NCBI GenBank assembly: GCA_048938445.1
Contig: JBHLME010000094.1
Location: forward strand, 1 to 17,517
Origin: Promethearchaeota archaeon
GTDB taxonomy: Archaea; Asgardarchaeota; Lokiarchaeia; Sigyniarchaeales; SOKP01
Reading direction: 5' to 3'
Length of the DNA: 17,517 bases
The notes under the pieces were generated by a model. That model saw nothing but the letters and a program-made list of their open reading frames with translations, searched no databases and was not told where the DNA came from. Position 1 is the first letter of the stretch. Every line of letters begins with the position of its first letter. Positions 1-17,517 of the stretch are shown here, piece after piece. The position numbers and the translations under genes are program-made.

Positions 1-1
1 C

Positions 2-3000: not shown

Positions 3001-4861
3001 TACCGACCCTAGTGGCATTGATACACGTTGGTATCGACTCATCGGGGACATCACGACTAGTAATTATCCTTGGACGGGTGAGATCGATCCTGCGGCATGG
3101 ATCCAAGTAGGTAATGGCACGGTGACCATCCAGATTTATGCCAATGACAGTGCGGGAAACGTGTACTTTGAAGAGGTGACCGTGAGAAAAGACATTACTC
3201 CGCCTGACATTCAAATCAATAGTCCAGGAGAATTTGACTTGTATGGGCTCGATGGTCCCGGCATTTCTGATCTTGACGTGGATTTTACCGATCCGAGTGG
3301 CATTGATACACGTTGGTATCGACTCATCGGGGACATCACGACTAGTAATTATCCTTGGACGGGTGAGATCGATCCTGCGGCATGGATCCAAGTAGGTAAT
3401 GGCACGGTGACCATCCGGATTTATGCCAATGACATTGCGGGAAACGTGTACTTTGAAGAGGTGACCGTGAGAAAAGACATTACTCCGCCTGATATACAAA
3501 TCAATAGTCCAGGAGAATTCGATTTGTTTGGAGAAACTGCTCCTTCTAGCGTTGATATGGATGTAGAAATCACGGATCCTAGTGGAGTTGATTCCATGTG
3601 GTATAGGTTATGGAATGGAACAATCTTTACAGATATAACTGACTGGTTAGGATATATTGAACAAGCCGATTGGGAGCAAGTTGGCAATGGTGATATTACA
3701 ATTTGCATTTATGCAAATGATACAGTTAACAATATTCAAAACACAAATATAACCGTAATAAAAGATATTGATGCACCAACAATTCAAATCAATGGACCAG
3801 ATGAAAATGAAAAATTTGGAATCAATCCTCCCGAATTTAATATTACTATTATAGAAGGAGGAGGTGCTACAAATTTAACTTGGTATCGTATATGGAATGG
3901 TACAAATTGGTCAGAAAATTATTACTTCACTGGAACTACTGGTACTATAAATCAAACAGCATGGTCTCTTTTAAGAAGTGGGATGATTACAATTGAATTT
4001 TGGATAAATGATATATTATCTAATGAGGGTTGGAGATCAGTAACTATTGAAAAAGACATAGATGGACCCATAATCACCATAATAAGTCCAGATGAAAATC
4101 ATCTGTGTGGAACCACACCTCCATCAATCTCAATAACTTTTAGTGATAGTTGTGATATTAATGAAACTTGGTATCAATTAATTGGTGATGATGCTACTGG
4201 TTATTATAACTGGACAGGTATGATTGATCCTGATTTATGGGGTTCAATATCGAATGGAACGGTTGAATTATGGTTCCTTGCTGAAGATAAATTAGGAAAT
4301 TATGAAGAAAAATCCTTATTATTACGTAAAGATTGTATTGCCCCTTCTATCTCAATAATATTACCTCAAAACAATCAATATGTAGATAGTGGAGCACCGT
4401 TTCTTGAATTATTTATTAGTGATCCTAATTTAGGTAATCAATGTGATTGTTGGTATTCTATAAATGGTGAAACCCCCTTGTATTATTTTTCATGGAAACC
4501 AAATATGATTATAAAGATAGATCAATCTTTATGGACAGGTATATGGGATACCTTATCGCATGGTGATACAATTGAAATTCAAATATTTGTTAACGATACA
4601 GTTGGCAATCTTGGCTCGGAAGTAGTGACGGTAATAAAATTTGTTGAGGAACCATTTGATTTGTTCAAAATATTATCAGGTCCAATGGGAGTAATTATAA
4701 CAGGTGCTATTGCGATTGGTATGACTCCATTATCCATTGGAGTTGTAAGGAGCAGGTTCTATAAATCATTGGCTAAAAAAGATAAGAAAAAAATTATAAT
4801 GATTTTCCTTTTTTCCTTTTTATTATTATCGATGATTTTAATATATTTACTAATACCATGA
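2..4861 (+). CDS. Giant cell-surface protein with tandem Ig-like/cadherin-like repeats and a C-terminal membrane anchor (5'-truncated by the window edge)
   Basis: The frame is open from base 2 (DSAGNLNTGPTYTLYKDTVTP...), so the GTG at 155 is an internal Val. About 16 complete ~92-100 aa repeats follow the pattern KDxxxP-x-I-x-I-x-x-P...WY...W...(Y/F)AND(S/T)xGN. There are many N-x-S/T sequons. The C-terminus has two hydrophobic segments separated by RSRFYKSLAKKDKKK. Confidence 0.9.
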   Translation, partial: DSAGNLNTGPTYTLYKDTVTPSLTVDAPGDGTYHNSIFNVQATATDTYFDSVWYEYGGTKYLLTSTVAEPLNGGIWSSLADEQSFTIQFFANDSAGNLNTGSIYTLYKDVIAPRLIVNSPTNYSYLNAIPLINITVFDEFLEEDFFTYTVMGYFPINNDLTNNTAILLDVNIWNNIDPGQFEIVIYSRDRANNIKQISIILHKDLLAPQIDIITPVDLTYLNSIPNIQANVNDMYFDSLWYVIDGTKIMLTNGISEPLDSGIWSSLSDEQSFIIEFYANDSAGNINGSYSLTLFKDIVTPLLTIIAPINNTIIDAIPMVQATAYDTYFDSIWYEVEGTRVMLSNGISEALDSGIWSSLSDEESFIIEFYANDSAGNINNTFSLTLHKDIKTPDITIEIPYQDNDIFGKDAPPFRIFIDETNLNTTWYSLFINGTIWSENIILAPGQISGYIDTDLWNSCNATVIIRFYANDTLGHINHADRIVFRDIEAPVITVIDQIPPNDYVSGEISPTLQIQKGNDVNSTWYSIFINSTYWSENITFTEDVVTIDQAEWAKCGNGTVEIMFYCNDSYGNIGFSNILMEKDMYSPMVLIDIYPLEQDPYCNEPPSFNISAIEPHLHKVWYGVEQGTFGYCSQNISLSNYINQQLDIGIWDDLEDGEFKIYVYMNDTAGNFNYTLISLKKDTSAPQFVINSPDLPDQYSWNSEPCLNITVLDPNLDDSTFICIVRGFWSMSLTNNTNAYIDSDIWDLLGNGEFLIWIEAADTLGHNNRINFTLYKDTSAPIISINSPENGTYYKQEPILNISSTDLNHDTLWYRVFQEQGSVDYWSDDISLINNSDQQLLNDIWLDLNEGMFIIYLFANDTFGYLNDSCSLTFYKDTVLPTVSINSPSEFDLFGSTPPNIIIDISDSSGIVTSWYRLIGDITTSNYPWTGEIDPAAWIQVGNGTVTIRIYANDSAGNVNFDEVIVRKDITPPDIQINNPGEFDLYGLDGPGVSDLDVDFTDPSGIDTRWYRLIGDITTSNYPWTGEIDPAAWIQVGNGTVTIQIYANDSAGNVYFEEVTVRKDITPPDIQINSPGEFDLYGLDGPGISDLDVDFTDPSGIDTRWYRLIGDITTSNYPWTGEIDPAAWIQVGNGTVTIRIYANDIAGNVYFEEVTVRKDITPPDIQINSPGEFDLFGETAPSSVDMDVEITDPSGVDSMWYRLWNGTIFTDITDWLGYIEQADWEQVGNGDITICIYANDTVNNIQNTNITVIKDIDAPTIQINGPDENEKFGINPPEFNITIIEGGGATNLTWYRIWNGTNWSENYYFTGTTGTINQTAWSLLRSGMITIEFWINDILSNEGWRSVTIEKDIDGPIITIISPDENHLCGTTPPSISITFSDSCDINETWYQLIGDDATGYYNWTGMIDPDLWGSISNGTVELWFLAEDKLGNYEEKSLLLRKDCIAPSISIILPQNNQYVDSGAPFLELFISDPNLGNQCDCWYSINGETPLYYFSWKPNMIIKIDQSLWTGIWDTLSHGDTIEIQIFVNDTVGNLGSEVVTVIKFVEEPFDLFKILSGPMGVIITGAIAIGMTPLSIGVVRSRFYKSLAKKDKKKIIMIFLFSFLLLSMILIYLLIP
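700..1146 (+). repeat. Older diverged intragenic duplication, 276-bp (92-aa) period
   Basis: TATGCGAATGATTCTGC occurs at 830 and 1106. Protein copies read NGISEPLDSGIWSSLSDEQSFIIEFYANDSAGNIN and NGISEALDSGIWSSLSDEESFIIEFYANDSAGNIN. Confidence 0.9.
2726..3527 (+). repeat. Near-identical intragenic tandem repeat, 285-bp (95-aa) period, about 2.8 copies
   Basis: TGGTATCGACTCATCGGGGACATCACGACTAGT starts at 2744, 3029 and 3314 (spacing 285). Copies differ by only scattered substitutions. Confidence 0.97.
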
Positions 4862-4942
4862 GAGGAATAAAGGTAATTTTATTATAATTAAAAATTCTTA
4901 TTAGATCCTAATTAGTAGATAAGAATTATAACAATCCATAAA

Positions 4943-5401
4943 ATGTCAAAAAAAGAAATTAAAACTAAAGAGTTAATTCGAGAATATTTATTAAATGAAG
5001 GGCTTCTGCGAGAAAATTTACCTGATCCTCAATCTAAATTTGAATTCGGATTTATCTTTTCTTTCCCACCGGGACAAGAGAAACAAAAAATGAGTGTTTT
5101 TAAACTAAAAAATAAAAACTTTATTATAATAGTACTTAGAACACAACTTTCTCAATCTCATATTAAATTTCTACAATCTTCAAAAGATGATATTGCTTCT
5201 AGATTTTTCAGAGCTTTAAGGAGATTTTTCATTATTAAAGAAGTTTATTTTCGAATTGAACTCCAAAATTATAGATATGAAATAAATGATCAAATTTTTA
5301 TTAATAAAGATGGATATATTTCAAAAAATAAGTTTTATAATAGTATTAAAAAGCTTTTTTATTGTTTTATATATAGAGGAATATTCATTAGGGAAACTTA
5401 A
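4943..5401 (+). CDS. DUF2299-like archaeal protein, probably frameshifted near its 3' end (natural end likely 5450)
   Basis: The N-terminus (IREYLLNEG...FEFGFIFSFPPG) and the FYNSIKKLFY segment resemble the archaeal DUF2299 family as I recall it. The +1 frame 5373-5450 encodes IEEYSLGKLKSPDKFYSNFDFSLYS*, a family-like C-terminus. Confidence 0.65.
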   Translation: MSKKEIKTKELIREYLLNEGLLRENLPDPQSKFEFGFIFSFPPGQEKQKMSVFKLKNKNFIIIVLRTQLSQSHIKFLQSSKDDIASRFFRALRRFFIIKEVYFRIELQNYRYEINDQIFINKDGYISKNKFYNSIKKLFYCFIYRGIFIRET

Positions 5402-5755
5402 ATCACCAGATAAATTTTATTCTAATTTTGATTTTTCTTTATATTCATAAATATTTTTAACATTTATTAAAAAGAAATGAAAATCTTAGTAGGATATTAT
5501 TTAAAATTAAAAATAAAAATCATTTTTAACCTAAAGGCTTATGTAAATTCAAAAGATATAAATAAGTTGATTTTATTTTAATTTCTAATCGAAATTTGAA
5601 GGTATTATGAAAATATTAAAGCAATTAATTAATCATATTTTAAAAGCAAGGACTAAATTAACAAAAAAGCAATTTTTTATAAGAATAAAAAAGTAAACCA
5701 TTAAGAAATATTAATCCCATTTTTTCATAGGACAAAAAGGAACCGCAAATTAATC

Positions 5756-5769
5756 AAAAAGTTTAAATA
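5756..5769 (+). promoter_or_regulatory. Putative BRE/TATA promoter for the 5879 gene
   Basis: Purine run AAAAAG followed by TTTAAATA (5762-5769), which would put the TSS near 5790-5797. SD-like AGGTGA lies at 5834-5839. The AT-rich background limits certainty. Confidence 0.45.
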
Positions 5770-5790
5770 CTGATAAATCATAACTATACA

Positions 5791-5816
5791 TTGATATTTC
5801 TTTAAAGAAATATCAA
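5791..5816. promoter_or_regulatory. Perfect 26-bp palindrome (operator or 5' hairpin)
   Basis: TTGATATTTCTTTAAAGAAATATCAA equals its own reverse complement. The palindrome is certain and its function is inferred. Confidence 0.7.
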
Positions 5817-5878
5817 GTTTTTATGAAATCCTAAGGTGATGAAAGCAGATTAGAACGGATGTTTCCAATGAAGAAACC

Positions 5879-6556
5879 ATGGAAAGTTATTCTAGAAATA
5901 CAAAATGGATACTTATTACATCTGTTCTTGTGAGTGTTATGTTTGGAGTTGGTGCTGGTATTGGTTTGGTTATTTTTTTTGAAGAAAATAATACAAATCA
6001 AATTGTATTACCTGAATTTATCAATGGGAATGAATACGTATCAATACGTCAACAATGTACGTCAGCTGATCACATTGTCCAACAAGGTTGGATTGATTGT
6101 ACAGTTAACATTCCTTATGAAATTCCTTACAATATAGAAGAAGCAGATCTTGCAGATTGGTCAATAGTCTGTGAGGTTATGGGAGGTTATGAACCTCTCT
6201 CAACTCAAGTTACTTTATACCAAGAAGTAAATGGTCAAACTATCTGGTTAGGCTTGCTCAAAGTTGAATGGGAGCACACCTTTGATCCAGGTACATGGCC
6301 TGTCCCATCAGTTGGATGTACACCAGACATTTGGACTGGTACTTTCCACTTATGGGATTGTAACAACCCTATATTATCATGGAGCAGTTATTACCCTGAG
6401 ATGTTGGGAGACTGCATTATATTAGGTGATAAATCAGGTTTATTAGAAGATGTCAAGCCAGTTGACATTGTGATCAACACCAATTGGGAGGGTTGCACTC
6501 CATTTGATGTAATATTGATACAAGAAAATTTATTCTCAAAAACCAACTCCATATAA
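5879..6556 (+). CDS. Hypothetical N-terminally membrane-anchored or secreted protein
   Basis: 225-aa ORF with a hydrophobic helix (WILITSVLVSVMFGVGAGIGLVIFF) followed by an acidic, Cys/Trp/Pro-rich, beta-type domain. No family recognised. The start could be the in-frame ATT at 5849. Confidence 0.8.
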   Translation: MESYSRNTKWILITSVLVSVMFGVGAGIGLVIFFEENNTNQIVLPEFINGNEYVSIRQQCTSADHIVQQGWIDCTVNIPYEIPYNIEEADLADWSIVCEVMGGYEPLSTQVTLYQEVNGQTIWLGLLKVEWEHTFDPGTWPVPSVGCTPDIWTGTFHLWDCNNPILSWSSYYPEMLGDCIILGDKSGLLEDVKPVDIVINTNWEGCTPFDVILIQENLFSKTNSI

Positions 6557-6585
6557 ATTTTCATCATCCATGTATCTAGAATTCC

Positions 6586-6612
6586 TTTTTCTAATTCTAA
6601 TCTTTTTTTTTT
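6586..6612 (+). terminator. Oligo-T archaeal terminator
   Basis: T-rich stretch including T10 at 6603-6612, shortly after the stop at 6556. Confidence 0.5.
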
Positions 6613-6886
6613 CATCTAATTTTTATGTATATTTTTCTAATTTTTTAAATTACTATTGATATTTTTAAGCTAATTAAATCTGTAGAAAATAATAATTTTC
6701 AGTAGATCCTTGTAGAAATCATGGATTAAAATAATTAGTTTAAGTTAATATTAGAATTTCTAATTTATCATAGGAAATAAAAGAATAATATTATTGGTTA
6801 CATTTAAGATTAGGCTTGAATTATTTAATTTATAATGAGGGATTGAAATGTAATAGACCTCAAGATGATCATAATATAATCTAAAA

Positions 6887-8728
6887 ATGATGCTTAACAA
6901 ACTTGAAGAAATTAATGGTATAGGAAAAATACTTCTTAATAGGCTTAGACATAAGGGGATTGATACACTAGAAAAAATAATATCAATGAATATTGATGAA
7001 TTAGAGAAAATCCCTGGGATTGGCAAGGCTACTGCTTTAAAATTAAAAAAGTTCGCGATTGATACTCTGAAAGAAAATAAATTTATTGATAAAAAATCTG
7101 AATTTAAAAACACGCTAAAAATTGTCAAACCTATTGTTCCTAAAAAAAGTGAAGAGAAAACCCCAATAAAACTTGAAAAACCCGTTATTCCAATTAATAA
7201 AAATTTAATCGAAATTAAGATCACCCCTAAAGCAATTAGTCCACAATTAACTAAAACAGAGGAAACTCTAAATAATTTAATGAAAAATCAAATTAGCAAA
7301 TTTCCTATCAAAAAACAGACAGTTGAATTACCAAAGGAAAAGGAAAAAATTAAATTACACAATAGAAATCAAAAAAATGAATTACCTAGAAAAAAGAAAA
7401 CAAAAAAATTACTTAAAAAAAATCATGAAACTAAAACTCCACTTAAAACATTTTTTCCACATGATATAATGCAAAAAATAAGATTTTTACATCATAAAAT
7501 TAAATATTTAGAAGATATTTTGAATAGAGGTAATGAACCAATCAAGTTAGATAACCTTGATTATATTTTAGATTATGTGAAAATATTAAATGTGAATTAT
7601 AAAACTCAAAGTCATGTAAGAATTTTTAAAGAATTAGAGTTCATTTCTAGTTTTCATGATCCACTGATTAATAAGAAAATTGAAATTTGGGATTTAATGT
7701 TTGAGTGTGCTTGGGCTTTATGGATTTTGGCACGAATTTATGCTGAATTCTCCCATAAATATGAATCGATTAAGGATTATAAAAACGCGCTTGTGTCTAT
7801 GGTCGAAGCTAGTAAATATTATAAAACCGCGGCGTATTTTAGTGCCGCTTGCACTCGCCAAGAAGATTTAGGGAAATCTCTCTCATGTGATAATCTTGAA
7901 TTAGAATCTGAAGAAGCACGCATTTTAGCACAAAGTCTTGCTGCTGAAAAAGAAGAAAAAGATGGAAATTACATTTTAGCTTCAAAGATATATTCTGGTT
8001 TGAGTGCACTATCAAAGAGATTTTTATATTTAAAAAAGCACGAAAAAATTAAAGAACACTCAATAACTGCCCAATATCATTATGATTATGGAATGGCTTA
8101 TTTTTTAAAAGCTAAAATGTTAGATTTAGGGTCATATTCTGATGAAGAAGAGAAAACAGCATTCCGTCAAAAATCGAACTATTATTTCTTTAAAGCAGAA
8201 GAAATTTGGCAGGATATGAGACATAATTTTGAAGATCTTTCATTGCGTGAACTGAAGAAAATAGATCATAACTTATTAATAGTAAATGATTATATTATCG
8301 AAAATGATGCTGAAATCTTACCAAATAAAGAACTTGATAATATTCCAGAAATTGAACCAATCATAGCAATTCCTGAAAATGTTGCTCCATTCCTTCCAAG
8401 AACTACCAATTATTTAACTAAATTCGGTCCTAAACATATTGAATTTAGCAATTATAGGAAATTTAAAAATATAAAGATTGAACATCATAGTAAGTCTAAT
8501 GAAATGGAAAGATTAAAGAACAAAAAAGCGGCTATTAAACAAACTATTAAAGAACTTAAAATGCTCTATAAAAAAAGTGATATTGATGTAAATAAGTTTT
8601 CAGAACTATTAGAAAAATATATCTTTGAATTAAAAACAATTGAAAACAATTTAAAAAAAATTAAAGAAAATTATCAAAACACAAACCAAGGAAAAGAACC
8701 AGTTAGAAGTGTTCGATTGATAAATTAA
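6887..8728 (+). CDS. HhH-domain protein with Bro1/ALIX-like helical domain and steadiness-box-like C-terminus
   Basis: The tandem HhH motifs LEEINGIGK and LEKIPGIGK are clear. A Lys/Pro-rich linker spans about aa 60-180. aa ~183-498 match Bro1 motifs in order and spacing (see findings). aa ~549-590 resemble the TSG101/Vps23 steadiness box. The CDS and HhH are secure, while Bro1 and SB are by-eye calls. Confidence 0.75.
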   Translation: MMLNKLEEINGIGKILLNRLRHKGIDTLEKIISMNIDELEKIPGIGKATALKLKKFAIDTLKENKFIDKKSEFKNTLKIVKPIVPKKSEEKTPIKLEKPVIPINKNLIEIKITPKAISPQLTKTEETLNNLMKNQISKFPIKKQTVELPKEKEKIKLHNRNQKNELPRKKKTKKLLKKNHETKTPLKTFFPHDIMQKIRFLHHKIKYLEDILNRGNEPIKLDNLDYILDYVKILNVNYKTQSHVRIFKELEFISSFHDPLINKKIEIWDLMFECAWALWILARIYAEFSHKYESIKDYKNALVSMVEASKYYKTAAYFSAACTRQEDLGKSLSCDNLELESEEARILAQSLAAEKEEKDGNYILASKIYSGLSALSKRFLYLKKHEKIKEHSITAQYHYDYGMAYFLKAKMLDLGSYSDEEEKTAFRQKSNYYFFKAEEIWQDMRHNFEDLSLRELKKIDHNLLIVNDYIIENDAEILPNKELDNIPEIEPIIAIPENVAPFLPRTTNYLTKFGPKHIEFSNYRKFKNIKIEHHSKSNEMERLKNKKAAIKQTIKELKMLYKKSDIDVNKFSELLEKYIFELKTIENNLKKIKENYQNTNQGKEPVRSVRLIN

Positions 8729-8775
8729 CATAAATATTTTTTATAGTTTATAATTTTACTTATACGGTGGTAATT

Positions 8776-9351
8776 ATGGTTAAAAAAAATTTCAAATTGT
8801 TTGATTTTTTCAGAACTCTTTGGCCATTTTTGGTAATAATCATAATAATTTTCTTTTTTTTTATAGATATCATCTTAGCAATATGGATTACATTTATCTT
8901 TTTAATAATTTCTTTGCTAGTTTACCTTCCTTCCCTTTCCTTCAAGTCTCGCTTAGTAAATTTAATGAATAAACACCTCAAAATTGAAGATATTGAAATA
9001 TCACATAAAGCTGGAAAGGTAATAGAAGAAATTAGGGAATACATGCATGAATTATCACTTAAACAAAAAAATAGAGATTGGTTAATCGTGCACTTGAATA
9101 ATCGCTATATCTATTATAATGCTGAAACTATTAAAGCATACACCCAACTTTATTATAGAGGCTATACTGATAAACAAATATTTGATAATATGAATGATCT
9201 TGTCAAGTTAAAAACAAGATCCGAAGTTAAGGCAATCGAAAATACTCTAAAATTACATGATAGACTTGTAAAAAGAGACATAATAATGGAAAAAAAACCT
9301 ATAAGAATTGATAAGTATCATCAGAATTTAAAAAAATTAGGAAAAACTTAA
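8776..9351 (+). CDS. Membrane protein: two N-terminal TM helices plus putative tandem winged-helix cytosolic region
   Basis: GGTGG SD at 8766-8770 favours the ATG at 8776 over the GTG at 8767. A hydrophobic hairpin runs LWPFLVIIIIIFFFFI-D-IILAIWITFIFLIISLLVYL. A helix-strand-helix-helix-hairpin pattern follows (KSRLVNLMNKH-KI-EDIEISHKAG-VIEEIREYMHELS-WLIVHLNNRYIYY), then a second HTH-like unit. Confidence 0.75.
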   Translation: MVKKNFKLFDFFRTLWPFLVIIIIIFFFFIDIILAIWITFIFLIISLLVYLPSLSFKSRLVNLMNKHLKIEDIEISHKAGKVIEEIREYMHELSLKQKNRDWLIVHLNNRYIYYNAETIKAYTQLYYRGYTDKQIFDNMNDLVKLKTRSEVKAIENTLKLHDRLVKRDIIMEKKPIRIDKYHQNLKKLGKT

Positions 9352-9404
9352 ACATTAACATAACATTCCACAGACTTTTTTTATATTTAATATTATTTAA
9401 TACG

Positions 9405-9701
9405 ATGGTATTTATTTTTTTACAAATTATTTATTGTAATGAATGTGGGGATTGTTGCTTATTAGATTGTAAAAGTGAATCTTATGATGGAGGTTCATGT
9501 ACCCATCCTGAAAAAAGTGTTTTTTGTGAAATGTTTCCAATATCCATTATTAGAAATAAATATTATCTCAGACAATGTAAAGGAGTCGCTTTTGATCTTC
9601 TTCCTATAAACATTTTAAATAGAATTATTGATCGCTTAAACCAAGGAGAAGAAAATTTTGAAGTAAAAACAAAGGAACTTCATTTTAGTATATCTTCTTA
9701 A
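9405..9701 (+). CDS. Small YkgJ-like CxxCxxCC cysteine-cluster (Zn/Fe-S binding) protein
   Basis: CNECGDCC motif, further Cys residues, CEMFP (compare the family CxxYP/FP motif) and a distal Cys. The start codon is uncertain. Confidence 0.7.
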   Translation: MVFIFLQIIYCNECGDCCLLDCKSESYDGGSCTHPEKSVFCEMFPISIIRNKYYLRQCKGVAFDLLPINILNRIIDRLNQGEENFEVKTKELHFSISS

Positions 9702-9731
9702 TAGAATTAAAGTAATAAAATAAATAAGACA

Positions 9732-9839
9732 TTATTCTACCATGCTAAAGGTTCCGTCTTCAGCTCCACAACTTGGGCATTTCTCAGGAATATCATCTAA
9801 ATCAAAATCGCTTCCGCATTTATCACATTTCCATTTCAT
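9732..9839 (-). CDS. 35-aa rubredoxin-like / zinc-ribbon microprotein (not in the ORF track)
   Basis: Manual translation gives MKWKCDKCGSDFDLDDIPEKCPSCGAEDGTFSMVE*. The WxCxxCG...PxxCPxCGA...F pattern is that of rubrerythrin-type short rubredoxin domains. The stretch is a GC-richer island in an AT-rich spacer. Confidence 0.85.
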   Translation of the reverse strand: MKWKCDKCGSDFDLDDIPEKCPSCGAEDGTFSMVE

Positions 9840-9961
9840 GGCTCATAACTCGTCTATTCTAATAGAAAAAATTTTAACTATAAAATTAAAATAGTTAGAT
9901 ATTATAAATTTTTGCATAAAGTATTAGTTCCAATTACTAAATTGATTTAACTCTATTTATT

Positions 9962-10792
9962 TTAAATATTTGAATATAATGTTTCAAGTTCTGCTTGGGA
10001 AAGATTTATTTCAGCAGCTTTCGCATTTGACTCAATATGTTTAATGTGCATTGCTTTAGGAATTGTAATAACATTGTCATGATTAATTAACCAAGCAATT
10101 GCTATTTGCTGAACTGTGGCATCATGTTGAGAAGCTAATTTTTCCATTTTTTCTTTCATATCGCCTCTCAATCTTTTTAATCCTGTATGTCCTAGTGGAC
10201 TATATGCAGTTAAAGTTACTCCTTCTTTTTGATAGTATGGTAATGAATCATGAATGTGTTTTTGTTTGCCAATATTTGCATGTAATTGATTACAGACTAA
10301 TTCCGCTTTTTTTAAAATGCTATTTCCCTTTTTAAACTGTTTTACAGAATAATTACTTACTCCAACATACCTGACTTTCCCTTCATTTAAAAGTTCTTCA
10401 AGTAAAACCATGTGTTTCTTTATTTTACTTCCAAAAAATGAAGGAAAATGAATTAAATATAAATCAATCGTGCTGATACCAAGCCTTTCTAGACTTTTAT
10501 AACACGCTTTTTTCATTGAGTTATATCCAAAGTGTCCAGGGAAAATTTTACTCGTTATAAATAAATCATCACGATTGTAATCCTTGATGACCTCTCCTAT
10601 AAGTCTTTCTGAAGCACCAAGACCATAAAATTCTGCTGTATCTATATGCGTGATTCCTAATTCAATACCTTTTCTCAATGACTCTTTCCATTTCTCATAA
10701 TAATTCTTATCTTGACCTTTCTTTATTCCCCATGTACCTTGACCAAGAACAGGAATCATTTCTCCTGTTTTCCCTAATTCTACCTTTCTCAT
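9962..10792 (-). CDS. Aldo/keto reductase (NADPH-dependent)
   Basis: Motifs LGQGTWG, IDTAEFYG, FITSK, DLYLIHFP, GVSNY, AYSPLG and IPKA. The catalytic Asp-Tyr-Lys-His tetrad is present. Confidence 0.95.
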   Translation of the reverse strand: MRKVELGKTGEMIPVLGQGTWGIKKGQDKNYYEKWKESLRKGIELGITHIDTAEFYGLGASERLIGEVIKDYNRDDLFITSKIFPGHFGYNSMKKACYKSLERLGISTIDLYLIHFPSFFGSKIKKHMVLLEELLNEGKVRYVGVSNYSVKQFKKGNSILKKAELVCNQLHANIGKQKHIHDSLPYYQKEGVTLTAYSPLGHTGLKRLRGDMKEKMEKLASQHDATVQQIAIAWLINHDNVITIPKAMHIKHIESNAKAAEINLSQAELETLYSNI

Positions 10793-10980
10793 AATAATAA
10801 CAAGTGTAATTTATATTAAATCTTATAATGCGTCTTTATTTAATATTATCATTTAAGGTTTTAAATTCTAAATTAATCATACAAAAATAAAAGAGTATTA
10901 TTCCTTTTTTTTCAAATCATATCCAGATTTATATTTGGTTATAATTTAATATATAATAACTTTATAAGGAAGTGCAAATA

Positions 10981-11925
10981 ATGGCAACAAATATAAAAAG
11001 TTCGACCTTCACGTACAAAGACCAAGATGGAATAGAAATCAATGTATATAAATGGGAACCAGAAAGTTCACCTAAGGCCGCAATCCAAATCATACATGGG
11101 ATGGCAGAGCATGGTAAAAGATATGAAAGAATTGCAGGTTTTTTGTGTAATAATGGATATATATGTTATGCTGATGATCATCGAGGTCATGGAAAAACTA
11201 TTGAATTAAATAACATGCCCCCTGGATATTTAGGAGAAAGTGGATGGGATGGAACGGTTAAAGCAATTCATCAATTATCTACTATTATTAAAGAACAACA
11301 CCCTCAAATTCCACTCTTTTTGATTGCTCATTCGTGGGGGTCATTTATGTGTCAAGATATAATGCAAAGATGGAGCCCTGAATATAATGGTGTAGTTTTA
11401 TCTGGTTCAAGTGGTAGTCAAAGTAGTACTCAGCTTAAAATAGTAAAAACCATTGCTAAAAAACAAATCAAGAAGCTTGGACCGAAGGAACCGAGTGAGA
11501 AGATGGATGACTTAATTTTTGATAGATATAATAAACCTTTTAAAAAGGAACCTGGAGCAACGAGGCATGAGTGGTTATCGAGAGATAAAGGAGAAGTACA
11601 AAAATATATAGATGATCCCTTATCTGGATTCATATGTCCTGCGTCTTTTTGGCTTGAAATGTTTACGGCATTTGATAAAATTTGGGATATTGAAAATGAA
11701 CGCAAGATATCCGTAGATTTACCAATTCTATTTATTTCAGGTACTTTTGATTCTAATAGTAATAATACAAAGAATTTAAAACCCCTTCTAGAACGATATA
11801 GAAAAGTCGGTATAAGAGAAGTAGGAGTTAAATTTTTTGAAGAAGCACGCCATGAAATTTTTAATGAAATTAACCGCGAAGAAGTTTATAATTTTGTTTT
11901 AGATTGGCTTAATTCTCATTTGTAA
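10981..11925 (+). CDS. Alpha/beta hydrolase, lysophospholipase / monoacylglycerol lipase family
   Basis: HGMAEH, DHRGHG, nucleophile elbow AHSWG, acid in ISGTFD and His in ARHEI. The ATG at 10981 with upstream AGGA is preferred over the GTG at 10972. Confidence 0.93.
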   Translation: MATNIKSSTFTYKDQDGIEINVYKWEPESSPKAAIQIIHGMAEHGKRYERIAGFLCNNGYICYADDHRGHGKTIELNNMPPGYLGESGWDGTVKAIHQLSTIIKEQHPQIPLFLIAHSWGSFMCQDIMQRWSPEYNGVVLSGSSGSQSSTQLKIVKTIAKKQIKKLGPKEPSEKMDDLIFDRYNKPFKKEPGATRHEWLSRDKGEVQKYIDDPLSGFICPASFWLEMFTAFDKIWDIENERKISVDLPILFISGTFDSNSNNTKNLKPLLERYRKVGIREVGVKFFEEARHEIFNEINREEVYNFVLDWLNSHL

Positions 11926-11928
11926 AAC

Positions 11929-11945
11929 CTTTTTTTTCTTTTTTT
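11929..11945 (+). terminator. Oligo-T terminator CT8CT7
   Basis: CTTTTTTTTCTTTTTTT begins 4 nt after the hydrolase stop codon. Confidence 0.6.
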
Positions 11946-12048
11946 GTATTATTTCTTATAAATTTCAATTTGAGCTAAAGTTTTTTAATGAATATTTTAT
12001 TAATATGTAAGAGAATAGATTTTAATTACGAGGTGGAAATTTGAAATC

Positions 12049-13002
12049 ATGAGTAATGAAAATGAGAACATTAATTATAATGAAATAAATAAAGATTTAG
12101 ATAATGAAAAATTACGAAATGAAATTAAACATCTAAATTCTCAAATTATAGAAAAAATAAACTCTATAAACACGATAGATACTGAATCTATCGATAAATT
12201 CCATATTATGAATATATTAAAAGATATCATAATTGCACAAAGACAAGAAATTATATGGAAACATGATGATATTAAAAAGTTAGAATTGGATGTTATTGAT
12301 TTAGCACATAAAATAACTTCGTTGGGAGAACCTCATGAACAAGAAAATAAAAGAGTAGACATTGCTAAAGATTACCATAGGAAAATAGATGAGATGAATA
12401 TTACCATTGAAGAATTATTAAAAAAAAATGCTGACAATCAAGAAATCATAAATAAATTGAGAGAAGAGAGCAATCCGGAATTCTGGGAAAATCAAATAAG
12501 TGAATTAAATAAAGTAATTATCGATCTAACGGATGAAAATGCATCACTTCGGAAAAACCTTAAAAATGCTGACAATACATCTAACAAGGAACAATTGGAG
12601 ACAGAATTATCGGACTTAAGGCAACAAATTATAGAATTAAAAGAAGAAAATAAAAAAATAGAAGAAAAAAATAAAATGTTGAAAGCCGCCCTCCTCATGA
12701 CTGTTGATACTGAGACTAAAAATTTGACAGATTCCCCTGAAACATTGACGGACGATACTGTTATAGAATTTGAAACTACTGGAGATAAAAAGGTTGCTAT
12801 TCATGAAGGACCAAGCGCAGTTAAAGCATTCCAAGAAAGTTTAGAATCATCAGAACGGAGGAGGCAATGTCCAAATTGTGGTGCATCGGGAGCATTCATT
12901 CTCGAAATTGATGATAAGTCAAACATCATATATCAAGATATGGGTAACAAAATATACGGTAAAAAGTATAAATGTGGCGAGTGTAGGCATGAATGGAAAT
13001 GA
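12049..13002 (+). CDS. Long coiled-coil protein with C-terminal Cys4 zinc ribbon
   Basis: Heptad-rich E/K/N/I/L sequence over about aa 10-215, an acidic linker, then CPNCG...CGEC..W at the C-terminus. SD GAGGTGG lies at 12030-12036. Confidence 0.85.
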   Translation: MSNENENINYNEINKDLDNEKLRNEIKHLNSQIIEKINSINTIDTESIDKFHIMNILKDIIIAQRQEIIWKHDDIKKLELDVIDLAHKITSLGEPHEQENKRVDIAKDYHRKIDEMNITIEELLKKNADNQEIINKLREESNPEFWENQISELNKVIIDLTDENASLRKNLKNADNTSNKEQLETELSDLRQQIIELKEENKKIEEKNKMLKAALLMTVDTETKNLTDSPETLTDDTVIEFETTGDKKVAIHEGPSAVKAFQESLESSERRRQCPNCGASGAFILEIDDKSNIIYQDMGNKIYGKKYKCGECRHEWK

Positions 13003-13385
13003 AATTGAATTAAAAAAAAAATCTCAAACTTTAAGTTTTTCTTTATCAAAAAAATTAGAGAAAATTATTAATTAGATTAAAATAAGTGAATTTATTCCAT
13101 TTTTTATATTATCTCTATTCTAAATTGACTTAATTTTAAATGAAAATATTTAGATGGGTTATAATTGACATGAATCAAGTTATATTTGGGTCTAGATCTC
13201 TTTATAGATTTTTACAAATTTATACTGATTTTTATAAGTGTTTTGATTAGTCATAAAATTCCCATAATAGAATTATTGATTTTTTTTCTCTACAAAAAAG
13301 TATAATATTTATATTTTATTGACAATTTTGTCTTTTAATTTTTCAATATTGAATGCATATTTCTAAATTTTCGAGGGAAGAAATA

Positions 13386-15698
13386 ATGATAAGACATTCA
13401 AAAAAGCAATTATTAGTCCTATTTGTAGTGACTTTAACAATCTTTAATTTTACTCTATATGTTGATAATAAAATTACTTTTACTAATTCTGAAAATGCCA
13501 TTAAAACTTCATCTAATCTTTTAATTCAATGGAATTATACGTGGGGGGGAAGTGAAACTGATTATGGGGGTGGAATGGTCTGGGATCCGGCAGGTTACGC
13601 ATATGTTTCTGGAACTACAAGAAGTTTTGGAGCGAATGAATCTGATATGTGTATAATAAAATATGGTTCTACAGGAAAGGAATGGAATCATACGTGGGGT
13701 GGAAGCGGAATTGATTATGGTAATGATGTAGCTGTCGATTCATTGGGAACTGCATATGTTGCTGGACAAATGACTAGCTTTGGAGCGCCTAATGGTGATA
13801 TTAGCTTAGTAACATTTAATTTCTGGGGTAAATCAATGAATTACTCATGGGGAGGAAGTGGAAATGATTATGGGAATGGTGTAGTTTTGGACTCATCAGG
13901 TAAAGCATATGTCGCAGGATATACAGATAGTTTTGGACTGTCTAATATAAGTATATGTTTAGTTAAATTCAATTATACTGGATTTACAGGAGTGGAATGG
14001 AATAGCACGTGGGGTGGGGATGGAGTTAGCGTAGGGCTTGATGTAGCCTTAGATAATTCAGGAAATGCCTATGTTGCTGGACACACCACTTGTTTTGGAG
14101 CGAAAGAGAAAGATTTGTGCATAGTGAAATTTAACACCACGGGAGGTGTAGAATGGAATAACACGTGGGGTAGAGCTGGATGGGATATTGGGTATGGTGT
14201 GGCTGTTGATTCTAATGGCAATGCATATGTTACAGGTTCTACAGAAAATACTGAAACGGGAGATCTGGATATGTGCTTGGTGAAATTTAACACCACGGGA
14301 GGTATTGAATGGAATTATACGTGGGGTGGAGATGAACATGATAATGGATATGGTGTAGATTTGGATTCTTCAGGTAATGCATATGTGGTCGGAGAAACAA
14401 CTAGTTTTGGAGCAATATATATTGATGTTTGTATAGTGAAATTTAATTCGACCGGAGTGGAATGGAATTACACCTGGAATGGAAGTGGAATGGATACTGG
14501 TAGGGATATAGCTTTGGACTCGTTTGGTAATATATATGTTTCTCTATCTACTAATAGTTTTACAATAACTAATATGGATATCGGTTTATTCAAATTTGTA
14601 TTTGATACATCTGAAGATGGCTCTCAATTACCTCCAGATCTTTTACTCTATATTATAATTGGAAGCATAATTGGAATTGCTGGAATCTCAACAATTACAA
14701 TGCTAGGAATAATTCGAACAAGAAACAAAAGAGTTCGAGCTTTATCTACTCCTCAATTCTTTATTAAGGATGTTGAGGTAGTTAGGGGTGGTGATTGGAT
14801 GGTTGAAGCAGCTCAGAGTGTTTTTCAGTTTAAAATTAAAATTAAAAACACCTCTCACTATGTCATTTCCAACATTCAAGTCATAATATCAGCAGTGCCT
14901 CCAGGATTAGAATTATTATCAGATAAATCCTATAATTTTTCGGACTTGAGCCAAAATTCATTCGTAAGTCCCACGTTTAAATTTAAGGCAAAAGAAAGCT
15001 GTGTTGGCAATACTATTGAGAGCCTTGTATCATTTAGAGATATCGAAGGGCATATTCAGACCATTAATGTTGAACCATTCGAAATTAAATATGTATGCAA
15101 TCTTTTAGTGCCCAAGCCAATAAGTAAACAAGAATATGAACAGAAAACGGCAAAAATGAGTGAAAAGAAGATTGTTCTAGATTGCGATATGTCTCCTGAA
15201 GAAATGGAACGAGAACTTTCAGATATCTTGCGGGTCAATAACTTTTACGTGCTTGATAAGACACCAGAACCGTTAGGATCTGAAATCAGGAGCTTGGAAG
15301 GGTATGCTGAGGGTAAGTATGATAAAAAGGATGTGGCTTTATCCGTGATGATGCAAAGAGTAGCCGCTCAAACCACGAAATTAATCGTCAAGGCGATGAG
15401 TGATAGAGAAGAAAAAGTAGTCGACCTTCTTAAAGATATAAACTTAAAATGTGATGACTTAAAGACCAGTAATGAGCTCATCTTGGAATATTCACAAAAG
15501 ATAGAGGAGGTGCTTGATGAAATTGATGACCTCGAAGAATTTTTAATGAGAAGACTTGGTTCTTTATGGGATAGAATAAAAGATGTGTGGAAAAAGTATA
15601 AGAGCGGAGAAGTCGGGAAGCTTGAATTCATAAAATTAGGAACGGAAGTAATCGGGAAGAAGTTTATCAAGATCTTTTTAGGAAAAATTATAAAATAA
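13386..15698 (+). CDS. Single-pass membrane protein: extracellular 7-blade SBBP-type beta-propeller, TM helix, cytosolic adaptin/COP appendage-like domain plus helical tail
   Basis: GAGGGA upstream favours the ATG at 13386. A signal peptide or anchor reads KKQLLVLFVVTLTIFNFTLY. Seven ~51-aa repeats follow the pattern WNxTWGG..D.G..V.LDS.GNAYV.G.T.SFG....D...VKF. The TM at ~14640-14714 is followed by RTRNKRVR (positive-inside). About 320 aa of cytosolic region follow. Confidence 0.85.
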   Translation: MIRHSKKQLLVLFVVTLTIFNFTLYVDNKITFTNSENAIKTSSNLLIQWNYTWGGSETDYGGGMVWDPAGYAYVSGTTRSFGANESDMCIIKYGSTGKEWNHTWGGSGIDYGNDVAVDSLGTAYVAGQMTSFGAPNGDISLVTFNFWGKSMNYSWGGSGNDYGNGVVLDSSGKAYVAGYTDSFGLSNISICLVKFNYTGFTGVEWNSTWGGDGVSVGLDVALDNSGNAYVAGHTTCFGAKEKDLCIVKFNTTGGVEWNNTWGRAGWDIGYGVAVDSNGNAYVTGSTENTETGDLDMCLVKFNTTGGIEWNYTWGGDEHDNGYGVDLDSSGNAYVVGETTSFGAIYIDVCIVKFNSTGVEWNYTWNGSGMDTGRDIALDSFGNIYVSLSTNSFTITNMDIGLFKFVFDTSEDGSQLPPDLLLYIIIGSIIGIAGISTITMLGIIRTRNKRVRALSTPQFFIKDVEVVRGGDWMVEAAQSVFQFKIKIKNTSHYVISNIQVIISAVPPGLELLSDKSYNFSDLSQNSFVSPTFKFKAKESCVGNTIESLVSFRDIEGHIQTINVEPFEIKYVCNLLVPKPISKQEYEQKTAKMSEKKIVLDCDMSPEEMERELSDILRVNNFYVLDKTPEPLGSEIRSLEGYAEGKYDKKDVALSVMMQRVAAQTTKLIVKAMSDREEKVVDLLKDINLKCDDLKTSNELILEYSQKIEEVLDEIDDLEEFLMRRLGSLWDRIKDVWKKYKSGEVGKLEFIKLGTEVIGKKFIKIFLGKIIK

Positions 15699-15700
15699 AT

Positions 15701-15717
15701 CTTTTTTTTCTTTTTTT
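15701..15717 (+). terminator. Oligo-T terminator CT8CT7
   Basis: CTTTTTTTTCTTTTTTT begins 3 nt after the stop at 15698, in the convergent spacer with dnaJ. Confidence 0.6.
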
Positions 15718-15799
15718 ATTCAAAATGAGATAATCTAGAGGTTATTATTAAATTTAATTTCCCATTTAGAATTTATAATCAAATTTAGCAACAAAAGAA

Positions 15800-16948
15800 T
15801 TATTTTTCACTCAATTTTTTAAATTCTTTTAATAATTCTAATTGCTTATCAGATAATCGTGTTGGCATCAAAATGTTCGCAATAACATATTGATCTCCTC
15901 TTCCTTTACCCCTTAAATAAGAAACACCATGATTTTTAATTCTAAATTCAGTTCCAAATTGAGTTCCTGCGGGTATGTCCAATTCTTTCTGAGTAATTTT
16001 TTGATTTTTGTAATCTAATATAGGAACTGTAATTTTTCCACCTATTATAGCGGTTATAATATCAATGTCAGCCTTTGTATAAAGATCATTTCCTCTTCGA
16101 ATGAAATCATTATTATCTTCCACGTCAATTCTAAGATACAAGTCTCCTGGTATGGCATTGGAGGATGGTATATGACCAGCACCTTGCATCTTTAGATGCA
16201 CTCCATTTTCAACTCCAGGAGGAATGTTAACTCCCTTTATTGTCTTAGTTTCTTCAATTACTTTTCTGCCTTTACACGTCTTACATTTATTGACCACGAT
16301 TTCTCCAGTACCCCGGCAATTACTACATTCTGTTTCTCGAATTATCGTTCCAAATCCTGATCGAGTCATTTTTCTCTCCCTACCAGTCCCATTACAATCT
16401 GAACACGTTGATATATTAGATTTTTCTCCATTTAAAGCTCCAGTTCCCTCACAATCATCACACGGTACAAATCTTTGAACAACTACGTCTCGCTTTAAGC
16501 CAAACATTGCTTCTTCAAAACTTAACTTTATTCGATGTTCAATATCTTGACCAACTTCTCTTCGAGGTTGAGCTCTTCTCGCTCGAGATCCAAATCCTCC
16601 AAAACCCCCTCCAAAAATATCTCCTATACCTCCAAATCCACCACCACCAAATATCGATCGAAACAATTCATCAATACCTGGTATTCCACCGCTGAAAAAA
16701 TCACTCATGTCTACATCTACTCCACTGAATCCAAATTGGTCATAGTTTCGACGTTTTTGTGGGTCACTCAATACTTCATATGCTTCTTGTAACTCAATGA
16801 ACTTTTCTTTGGCATTAGGGTCAGTCTTATTCATATCAGGATGAAGTTTTCTCGCCAATCGTCGATAAGCAAGTTTAATGTCTTTCTCTGTAGCGTCTTT
16901 CTGAACTCCTAATACCTCGTAATAGTCTCTCTTGTTTTTGCTACTAAT
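15800..16948 (-). CDS. dnaJ: Chaperone DnaJ (class A Hsp40)
   Basis: The J-domain ([10 protein letters not shown]...[12 protein letters not shown]) extends upstream of the ORF-track start at 16858. A G/F-rich region, four CxxCxGxG-type repeats and a C-terminal domain (GDLY, RGDQYV) follow. No in-frame ATG/GTG/TTG lies upstream of the J-domain, so the start is ATT at 16948 or 16951. Confidence 0.97.
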
Positions 16949-16957
16949 AATTCATCA

Positions 16958-16962
16958 ACCTC
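16958..16962 (-). promoter_or_regulatory. Shine-Dalgarno site of dnaJ
   Basis: GAGGT on the minus strand, 6 and 9 nt upstream of two in-frame ATT codons. Confidence 0.65.
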
Positions 16963-17260
16963 GTTATTACGTTTAAGAATCAATTAGAAATCATAAACTG
17001 TTAAAAATTATAAATATAAATCCTCGATATAATATATCTTTTTAGTTAATTAATCTGCTATTTAATACTTTATAATCGTTGTTTTTATAATTGTATAAAA
17101 TAATTATATCATAAAATTCTTACTGATATAGAGATCTTTAAATAAAAAAATTTAAAATTGTTATTTCATAATTTTAGATAAGATAAAACCGTGTAAAATC
17201 AATTTAAAATAAAGTTTAAGATAATAAAAAAAATCATAAAAATAGAAAATGTGAAAAATT

Positions 17261-17517
17261 ATGACTGAAAGTGGTGAAAAAAAATCAACCAGAAAAGAAA
17301 AAATCATTGGTATCGATTTAGGAACGTCCAATAGTGCTTGTGCGATATTAAATGCAATAACAAGACAACCTGAAATTATCCCTGCAGCAGAAGGGAGAAC
17401 TCTTGGTGGTAAAGCCTTCCCTTCTTACGTGGCTTTTAATGAAAGCGGACAAAAAATCGTTGGTGAACCTGCTCGACGTCAGGCAGTCTCCAATCCTGAA
17501 GGAACAGTTTACGCTAT
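17261..17517 (+). CDS. dnaK: Chaperone DnaK (Hsp70), N-terminal fragment cut by the window edge (not in the ORF track)
   Basis: Manual translation gives [30 protein letters not shown]...[49 protein letters not shown]. It contains the Hsp70 signature IDLGTxNS and the PSYVAF motif. Confidence 0.97.

Follow-up and report, generated by a model that had tools for sequence, protein, structure and literature searches.

An Asgard archaeal gene predicted to join a surface β-propeller to a coat-type appendage in a single membrane protein

Architecture of the receptor gene

We analysed a 17,517-nucleotide stretch of the genome of a Promethearchaeota archaeon, a Loki-type Asgard (assembly GCA_048938445.1, contig JBHLME010000094.1, positions 1 to 17,517; hereafter the window) and concentrated on one gene, which encodes a predicted surface receptor. 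A sequence-only reading of this DNA had assigned positions 14766..15698 to the cytosolic tail of such a receptor and likened the tail to the appendages, or ears, of vesicle coats. The peptides that it quoted for this region are all found in frame +1 of the open reading frame (ORF) 13353..15698. If translation starts instead at Met12 (13386), the product has 770 residues, as does the public protein P0002. The gene and its parts are as follows.

13353..15698, + strand: whole gene, a predicted 781-residue type-I membrane protein in a single open frame, frame +1
13407..13463, + strand: N-terminal hydrophobic signal or anchor, residues 19-37, preceded by basic residues (hydropathy scan, sequence)
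13530..14627, + strand: predicted extracellular SBBP-type β-propeller with seven blades of ~52 residues, W-N-x-[ST]-W-G-G, and 14 N-x-S/T sequons (Pfam, NCBIfam, repeat and sequon count)
14640..14714, + strand: single transmembrane helix, residues 430-454, LLLYIIIG...MLGII (hydropathy scan)
14715..14765, + strand: 17-residue linker from the transmembrane helix to the tail, residues 455-471, containing the basic stop-transfer stretch RTRNKRVR (positive-inside rule obeyed)
14766..15113, + strand: appendage subdomain 1, a GAE/Ig-like β-sandwich, tail residues 1-116
15114..15158, + strand: inter-subdomain linker with a short helix (alignment, AlphaFold2)
15159..15449, + strand: appendage subdomain 2, a TBP-like α/β platform, tail residues 132-228
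15450..15695, + strand: C-terminal compact four-helix domain, tail residues 229-310 (AlphaFold2, fold searches, copies in the same genome)

The predicted cytosolic tail of 310 residues thus spans 14766-15698, that is, residues 472-781 and the stop codon.

Fold of the tail

We modelled the tail with AlphaFold2 without templates, using a family alignment of 51 sequences (A1), which gave a mean predicted local distance difference test score (pLDDT) of 94.8 and a predicted template modelling score (pTM) of 0.81. In tail numbering, strands 3-116 make up a β-sandwich, a helix at 121-128 covers the linker 'LLVPKPISKQEYEQK', and the α/β unit occupies 132-228, finishing at '...KLIVKAMSDREEKVVDLLKDI'. 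Four terminal helices follow (235-252, 256-279, 285-296 and 299-309). The order of Ig-like sandwich, linker, α/β unit and helices that had been read from the sequence therefore agrees with the secondary structure of the model. The helices at the end had been described as coiled coil, and here the model differs, showing a compact four-helix domain rather than an extended coiled coil.

Comparison with known structures, which the sequence-only reading had suggested against AP-2, COPI and the BBSome, bore out the appendage assignment. The first 14 Foldseek matches in the Protein Data Bank (PDB) are all COPI β or γ appendages or AP-2 α or β2 ears (E 1.1e-11 to 2.9e-8, 229-257 aligned columns), and FA-core and BBSome chains come after the ears in the ranking. 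The global TM-scores of these alignments are low (~0.3), the root mean square deviation (RMSD) is 12-15 Å and the identity to ears is 9-15%; the low scores and high RMSD indicate that the two subdomains are set at a different angle to each other than in the ears. A VIA-align run over the best 996 Foldseek chains returned values of 16.1 and 221 for the β-COP appendage, 15.3 and 206 for the AP-2 α ear, 13.8 and 212 for the γ-COP appendage, 13.3 and 195 for the β2 ear, 12.9 and 116 for the AP-4 β platform alone (RMSD of 2.5 Å), and 12.5 and 183 for BBS9 residues 410-625. The same families occupy ranks 1-5 of a scan of 48,161 representative chains that was independent of Foldseek, in which all listed chains aligned over at least ~180 residues (183-210) are ears or BBS9. 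The ESM Atlas model of the protein superposes on β-COP clusters with a TM-score of 0.61-0.64 over ~225 residues.

Sequence profiles point in the same direction at lower levels of significance. Pfam PTHB1_GAE falls on the sandwich of the query (E 0.0086, 17.0 bits against a cut-off of 27.4) and on that of 5/51 relatives at E<=0.01 (best 1.6e-4, below the cut-off), while Coatomer_b_Cpla falls on the platform of 2/48 relatives (E ~1e-4, 22.3-22.8 bits against a cut-off of 32.7). These weak, sub-threshold matches land on the corresponding subdomains in the correct order. The query itself matched none of Alpha_adaptinC2, Alpha_adaptin_C, B2-adapt-app_C, Coatomer_b_Cpla and Coatomer_g_Cpla at E<=0.1, and a profile search against PDB chain sequences returned four rows, all at E>=0.11 and none meaningful. 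Together, the fold matches and the placement of PTHB1_GAE and Coatomer_b_Cpla support a platform behind the Ig-like sandwich. A lone Ig of the CARDB/NEW3 type is ruled out by the presence of this platform subdomain in VIA-align and the 48,161-chain scan. The modelled tail is thus a β-COP/adaptin-type appendage, sandwich plus platform, extended by a small four-helix domain.

The junction between the subdomains carries the family motif C-[ND]-L-L-x-P-x-x-[IV]-[ST]-x-x-E-[FY]-x-x-K-[LTIV]-x-x-[ML] in alignment A1. A conserved FxxxW motif marks the same junction in adaptin and COPI ears (given in part by PMC2262067 and in part general background). The sequence-only reading had named an LxPxxxsxxeFxxxW-type linker. 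Its aromatic position stands, with F/Y in 49/51 relatives; its tryptophan does not, the family having [FY]xxx[LTIV]xx[ML] instead, with L/T/I/V at +4 and M or L at +7 in 51/51. The platform has the conserved motifs N-F and G-x-A-x-G-K-Y-D-K.

Two further observations concern the appendage. Two cysteines of the sandwich, tail C79 (15000-15002) and C111 (15096-15098), are invariant in 50/50 relatives whose aligned sequence reaches them, despite the predicted cytosolic location of the domain. A Thorarchaeota ESM Atlas cluster (407 residues, HEAT_2 in 80% of members) matches the appendage with a TM-score of 0.57 over 233 residues; HEAT repeats and an ear in one Thorarchaeota chain would amount to a mini-adaptin-like layout, which we mention as a lead only.

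Ectodomain and membrane topology

SBBP (PF06739) is the sole Pfam family above threshold in the whole protein (E 6.2e-28, 96.9 bits against a cut-off of 20.5, six stretches), and an NCBIfam scan found SBBP and delta-60 repeat models and nothing else. Six blades fit a W-N-x-[ST]-W expression and the seventh (MNYSWGG) was recognised by eye. The ectodomain is therefore predicted to be a seven-bladed SBBP β-propeller that is rich in N-glycosylation sequons.

The hydropathy scan found hydrophobic stretches at residues 19-37 and 430-454 alone. The 392-residue ectodomain stretch contains 14 N-x-S/T sequons, compared with two in the 310-residue tail; the residues ahead of the transmembrane helix are acidic (DTSEDGSQLPPD), and RTRNKRVR behind it has five basic residues in eight. 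This imbalance in sequons and charge places the tail inside the cell. Most copies of the tail end TPR, WD40, LRR, PCI or Ras-GTPase proteins without a transmembrane segment, which also argues for a cytosolic location. The tail is thus predicted to be cytosolic and the propeller external, on the positive-inside rule and the family argument rather than on a dedicated predictor. An extracellular tail, which would have undone the sequence-only reading, is ruled out by the sequon and charge topology together with the relatives that lack a predicted transmembrane segment.

A mobile C-terminal module of Asgard archaea

We searched for the tail with HMMER exhaustively over 1.84 billion representatives, clustered at 50% identity, and found 399 clusters at E<=1e-3, of which 70 reach E<=1e-30. 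Among the best 150 matches listed, the tail is found C-terminally, or close to the C-terminus, in proteins of 108 to 2,943 residues. The relatives come from sources named Heimdall-, Hermod-, Sigyn- and Promethearchaeota. These proteins bear the annotations 'hypothetical', 'TPR' or 'LRR protein', and none of their precomputed Pfam domains extends over the tail. At E<=1e-5, 40 of the 151 genomes sampled from the phylum had a match, with a patchy spread (11/25 in family f1, 24/26 in family f7 and none in most families). The domains that accompany the tail in 48 scanned relatives were counted as follows.

TPR: 12/48
WD40: 5/48
LRR: 4/48, plus one with WD40 and LRR
PCI: 4/48
NosD/β-helix ectodomains: 4/48
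SBP_bac_5 ectodomains: 2/48
TIR: 2/48
LVIVD: 1/48
TSP3: 1/48
No Pfam family as partner: 11/48

Outside these 48, P0171 combines a Ras-family GTPase (E 5.7e-38), TPR and the tail. P0035, with LVIVD repeats, and P0059, with NosD/β-helix, are arranged as ectodomain, transmembrane segment, TIR and tail, a domain order like that of Toll-like receptors. The tail is therefore a mobile, Asgard-wide C-terminal module, and it occurs on other ectodomains too, namely SBP_bac_5 and NosD/β-helix domains. By a stringent hydropathy scan, at least 42 of the best 150 relatives have a transmembrane-like segment ahead of the tail.

The module itself varies in extent. Sandwich, platform and helical domain occur together in 49 of the best 150, sandwich and platform without the helices in 75, platform and helices in 8, and helices alone in 7. 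Of the appendage-only relatives, 64 extend C-terminally beyond the platform, and in 52 of these a zinc-ribbon-like segment of ~45 residues (CxxC...CxxC) comes next. This segment, and not the helical domain, is the commonest C-terminal partner of the appendage (P0037-P0151).

Exchange of ectodomains on a constant tail

We built a maximum-likelihood tree (quick IQ-TREE) of 56 full-length tails, whose rows cover residues <=10 to >=295, and retained the long branch P0075. The query falls into a clade of five tails with 97% support, and all five have a transmembrane segment. Its four clade mates, with tails 59-65% identical to that of the query, have an SBBP ectodomain with a Kre9_KNH Ig in one case and SBP_bac_5 in three. 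In this clade, the ectodomain is exchanged between SBBP and the ABC-type solute-binding form and the tail is constant.

Over the whole tree, the membrane-anchored state requires at least 6-9 changes, compared with a mean of 14.1 when labels are shuffled, and 0/500 shuffles were as low. Anchoring is therefore clustered, yet repeatedly gained or lost. We assigned the labels with a crude hydropathy threshold, which probably mislabels at least one 'soluble' row, P0162 with its NosD domains, so the membrane-anchored counts are lower bounds.

The C-terminal helical domain

The compact four-helix domain at the end of the tail (AlphaFold2) occupies the place where sister architectures carry Vps28-C or a zinc ribbon, and Vps28-C was considered as its identity. 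No Pfam VPS28 or CdvA match was obtained in the tail at E<=0.1. Alignment of the helical domain to the genome's own Vps28-C by hhalign gave a probability of 0.2%, and jackhmmer with the same Vps28-C matched 0/150 tail relatives. These three negatives weigh against a Vps28-C identity, although a failure to detect the domain does not prove its absence. Fold searches with the isolated helical domain found no Vps28 chain and no BBS chain among the listed matches, which leaves the BBS-like hairpin of the sequence-only reading unsupported. The helical domain is not detectably a Vps28-C or steadiness box.

A different pointer is to the RST domain. Pfam RST was found in 5/51 relatives, two of them marginally above the cut-off; ESM Atlas RST clusters match the helical domain with a TM-score of ~0.5, which is under the bar; and VIA-align rows are a further weak pointer. 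An RST-like α-α hub (RCD1-SRO-TAF4) is thus a weak lead for this domain.

The same genome contains two proteins in which the helical domain stands alone, as the C-terminus of a 196-residue soluble ORF (contig C242; locus L003, 1126-1716, + strand) and as the N-terminus of a 407-residue polytopic membrane ORF (contig C17; locus L004, 122-1345, + strand). This unannotated Asgard domain is mobile separately from the appendage and has no clear known fold. We found no description of it in the literature.

Relation to published Asgard appendages

Appendage domains have been reported from Asgard archaea before. According to Liu et al. 2021 (bioRxiv 10.1101/2020.10.19.343400), Asgard Vps28/Vps23 are fused to adaptin/COPI subunit C-terminal domains and to E3 UFM1 ligase. 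In the list of Asgard eukaryotic signature proteins (ESPs) given by Eme et al. 2023, α-adaptin C-terminal and β2-appendage domains appear, 'not fused to each other'. Makarova et al. 2024 (mBio, PMC10936438) define the adaptin-appendage regions as IG plus TBP, describe their co-occurrence in Asgard proteins with TPR, PCI, longin, Vps28-C and steadiness box domains, and propose that appendage proteins are ESCRT-0-like interaction hubs that feed ESCRT.

This genome has a protein of that kind, a 790-residue ORF (C127:15257-17629; locus L005, 832-3204, - strand) with zinc ribbons, three PCI stretches, an E3_UFM1_ligase-like region, an appendage and Vps28-C (VPS28 27.1 bits against a cut-off of 24.5). 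The tail-family profile A1 matches it across sandwich and platform (E 6.5e-20), and the platform-exit motif is common to both proteins, K-A-M-S-D-x-E-K in the query and K-I-R-S-D-E-R-E-K in the 790-residue ORF. The profile match and the shared motif make the tail appendage a homologue of the published Asgard appendage, not a new domain. The complete tail also recurs in the same genome on a 492-residue ORF without a predicted transmembrane segment (52% identity), on the same contig as the 790-residue ORF and ~7 kb from it, with unrelated genes between. EAP30/Vps22-like and Vps28-C domains are present in this genome.

The appendage class is therefore already known in Asgard archaea, and the tail is less novel than the sequence-only reading implied. 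What differs here is that the appendage is anchored to a receptor and ends in an undescribed helical domain. We found no description in the literature of an Asgard fusion of a transmembrane receptor to an appendage; the main text of Makarova et al. 2024 mentions no receptor, TIR or β-propeller and has no Asgard appendage linked to a transmembrane segment, and its Figure 6B or supplementary figures may show further architectures.

Genomic neighbourhood

The receptor gene is preceded on its own strand by genes for a coiled-coil/zinc-ribbon protein, an α/β hydrolase, and HhH and DUF2299 proteins, and on the opposite strand by one for an aldo-keto reductase; downstream are dnaJ, on the opposite strand, and dnaK. 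The window has no tRNA. Its DNA recurs in sediment metagenomes from more than one study, and the 14 runs listed for it include no RNA run. A pattern search of genome contigs with the single protein gave 68 pattern matches, none of which was confirmed.

Several neighbours have features of their own. The coiled-coil protein, of 317 residues and ending in a C4 zinc ribbon (12049-13002, + strand), lies 350 nt upstream of the receptor gene. A 5'-open ORF of 1,619 residues (2-4861, + strand) with Big_3_3, Big_7 and Big_13 Ig-like domains encodes another very large surface protein. A 613-residue protein (6887-8728, + strand) begins with a helix-hairpin-helix pair (HHH_5, E 2.3e-11), and no Pfam family matched the ~550 residues beyond it. 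The frame of dnaJ (15800-16951, - strand) stays open for 31 codons ahead of the first ATG/GTG/TTG (16858), a stretch that includes the conserved start of the J-domain (..DYYEVLGV..), and two ATT codons (16951 and 16948) follow directly after the upstream TGA. Because the J-domain starts ahead of the first ATG/GTG/TTG and the ATT codons follow the TGA, dnaJ probably uses a non-canonical start. Divergently from it, dnaK starts at 17261 (+ strand) and extends beyond the window.

Proposed role of the tail and competing explanations

Eukaryotic ears are hubs that bind short linear motifs. By analogy, the appendage of the tail, and possibly also the helical domain, may dock soluble cytosolic partners, while the propeller would bind something outside the cell. 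External binding would thereby be linked to cytosolic sorting or membrane-remodelling machinery, in cis, whereas eukaryotes use an adaptor complex distinct from the receptor. Docking from module to module would most likely fall to the helical domain, as an exchangeable piece placed where Vps28-C or a zinc ribbon is found elsewhere. We consider it evenly balanced whether the tail acts in this way, as a cis-acting adaptor or docking hub between an external binding domain and cytosolic partners. The function suggested in the sequence-only reading, that of a fused cargo receptor and coat adaptor, is likewise putative.

A number of results weigh against such a role. The tryptophan of FxxxW at linker position +4 is found in 0/51 aligned relatives. 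There is no ESCRT, GTPase or coat gene beside the query gene in the window, whose neighbours are housekeeping genes, and the 20-kb neighbourhood of the soluble 492-residue paralog is likewise of a housekeeping kind, also without ESCRT, GTPase or coat genes. The negative Pfam and hhalign results for the helical domain count on the same side: since it is not detectably a Vps28-C or steadiness box, the published link to ESCRT-II is not simply transferable to this tail. Finally, the TIR, LRR and WD40 fusions of the family would suit a signalling role equally well.

That last point leads to a signalling or defence receptor, in which the propeller would sense a ligand and clustered tails would scaffold signalling or immune output without vesicles or membrane sorting. 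The company of TIR, LRR and WD40 favours it, although PADLOC matched the tail to no defence model in 6/6 proteins, the TIR of P0035 being the one match; we regard this explanation as unlikely. It is rather more doubtful that the protein is a structural anchor, a surface or adhesion component fastened through its cytosolic appendage to the cytoskeleton or a sub-membrane lattice. The parallel here is with eukaryotic BBS2/7/9, whose GAE-platform units are assembly pieces rather than ligand hubs. Most relatives, though, have no predicted transmembrane segment and combine the tail with TPR, WD40 or LRR, which a general docking module fits better; the SBP_bac_5 ectodomains of the nearest relatives point to ligand capture, and no cytoskeletal gene is linked.

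The resemblance might also be one of fold only, the tail being an ancient, generic two-domain unit without a functional parallel to ears, used for instance in receptor regulation or quality control. The low identity to ears, Pfam appendage matches that all stay below curated cut-offs, the missing tryptophan, and the rigid-body RMSD of 12-14 Å for the two-subdomain alignments, with its different inter-domain angle, are all consistent with this. We nevertheless hold it to be very unlikely. Of the chains listed in the scan of 48,161, coat and adaptor appendages and BBS9 alone align across both subdomains; the β-COP superposition of the ESM Atlas model and the independent weak sequence matches, each on its corresponding subdomain and in the correct order, point the same way; and the module co-occurs with the trafficking-type partners Vps28-C, PCI and Ras GTPase.

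The docking-hub proposal has a bolder extension, which we think quite improbable, namely that this is a receptor family with the coat ear in cis, in which interchangeable SBBP, ABC-type solute-binding and β-helix ectodomains on a β-COP-like tail represent a one-chain precursor of cargo receptor plus adaptor, with soluble siblings of the tail on TPR/WD40 repeats and on a Ras-family GTPase. If so, surface capture of ligands and membrane remodelling or uptake would be directly coupled, and the one-chain state would predate the eukaryotic split into cargo tails and soluble AP/COPI complexes. The origin of vesicle-coat adaptors is an open question of eukaryogenesis, and Asgard appendages have so far been known as parts of soluble, ESCRT-associated multidomain proteins. 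The gene described here offers a testable surface receptor that is predicted to end inside the cell in the ear itself. Recruitment of sorting machinery by its tail would directly demonstrate that the archaeal relatives of eukaryotes couple membrane trafficking to receptors. Should the tail recruit none, the ear fold would predate coats as a general docking module.

Comparison with known appendage systems

We compared the query with the known proteins that carry related appendages. The β-COP and γ-COP appendages (PDB 9qpq_H, 5nzr_B, 1pzd, 1r4x) are 13-15% identical to the tail, with Pfam matches below the cut-offs. COPI appendages are joined by a hinge to a HEAT-repeat trunk within a heptameric coat, whereas the query tail is joined by 17 residues to a transmembrane helix, lacks the FxxxW tryptophan and has the extra C-terminal four-helix domain. 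Identity to the AP-2 α and β2 ears and the AP-4 β ear (PDB 1w80, 1b9k, 1e42, 3h1z, 2mj7) is 9-11%. In contrast to AP ears, the query has no trunk, hinge or clathrin box and is a membrane-anchored archaeal protein. A HEAT/ARM trunk with a hinge in a multi-subunit adaptor is thus not the setting here, the relatives carrying TPR, WD40, LRR or PCI.

The GAE and platform pair is also common to the query tail and BBS9, BBS2 and BBS7 (PDB 6vbu, 6xt9). Unlike in these proteins, the propeller of the query is of the SBBP type and predicted to lie across the membrane from the tail. Foldseek alignments of the tail to BBS9/7/2 span 329-353 columns; VIA-align covers model residues 1-234 alone, with no alignment of the terminal helices to the BBS hairpin or coiled coil.

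Among archaeal proteins, the Asgard proteins with an appendage and Vps28-C or steadiness box share with the query tail the homologous IG plus TBP appendage, and have the same partner repertoire as the tail family (TPR, Ig-like, HTH/PCI). The query differs in that Vps28-C or a steadiness box is not detected, the four-helix domain being there instead, in having no longin domain, and in being membrane-anchored with an ectodomain.

The other archaeal comparison, made from the description in Makarova et al. 2024 (PMC10936438), is with WP_013898578.1 of Methanosalsum zhilinae, from the Meth_adaptin system, an appendage joined to a GOLD domain via a transmembrane linker and matched by HHpred at 98% to the β-COP and AP-2 β appendages. 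According to the same source it lies in a methanogen Vps4/ESCRT-III neighbourhood, whereas the query has no ESCRT neighbourhood. In both proteins, as far as that description goes, an archaeal appendage and a cargo-type domain flank one transmembrane segment, and the order is reversed: the methanogen protein has its appendage at the N-terminus (1-220) and GOLD at the C-terminus, and the query runs from ectodomain through transmembrane helix to appendage.

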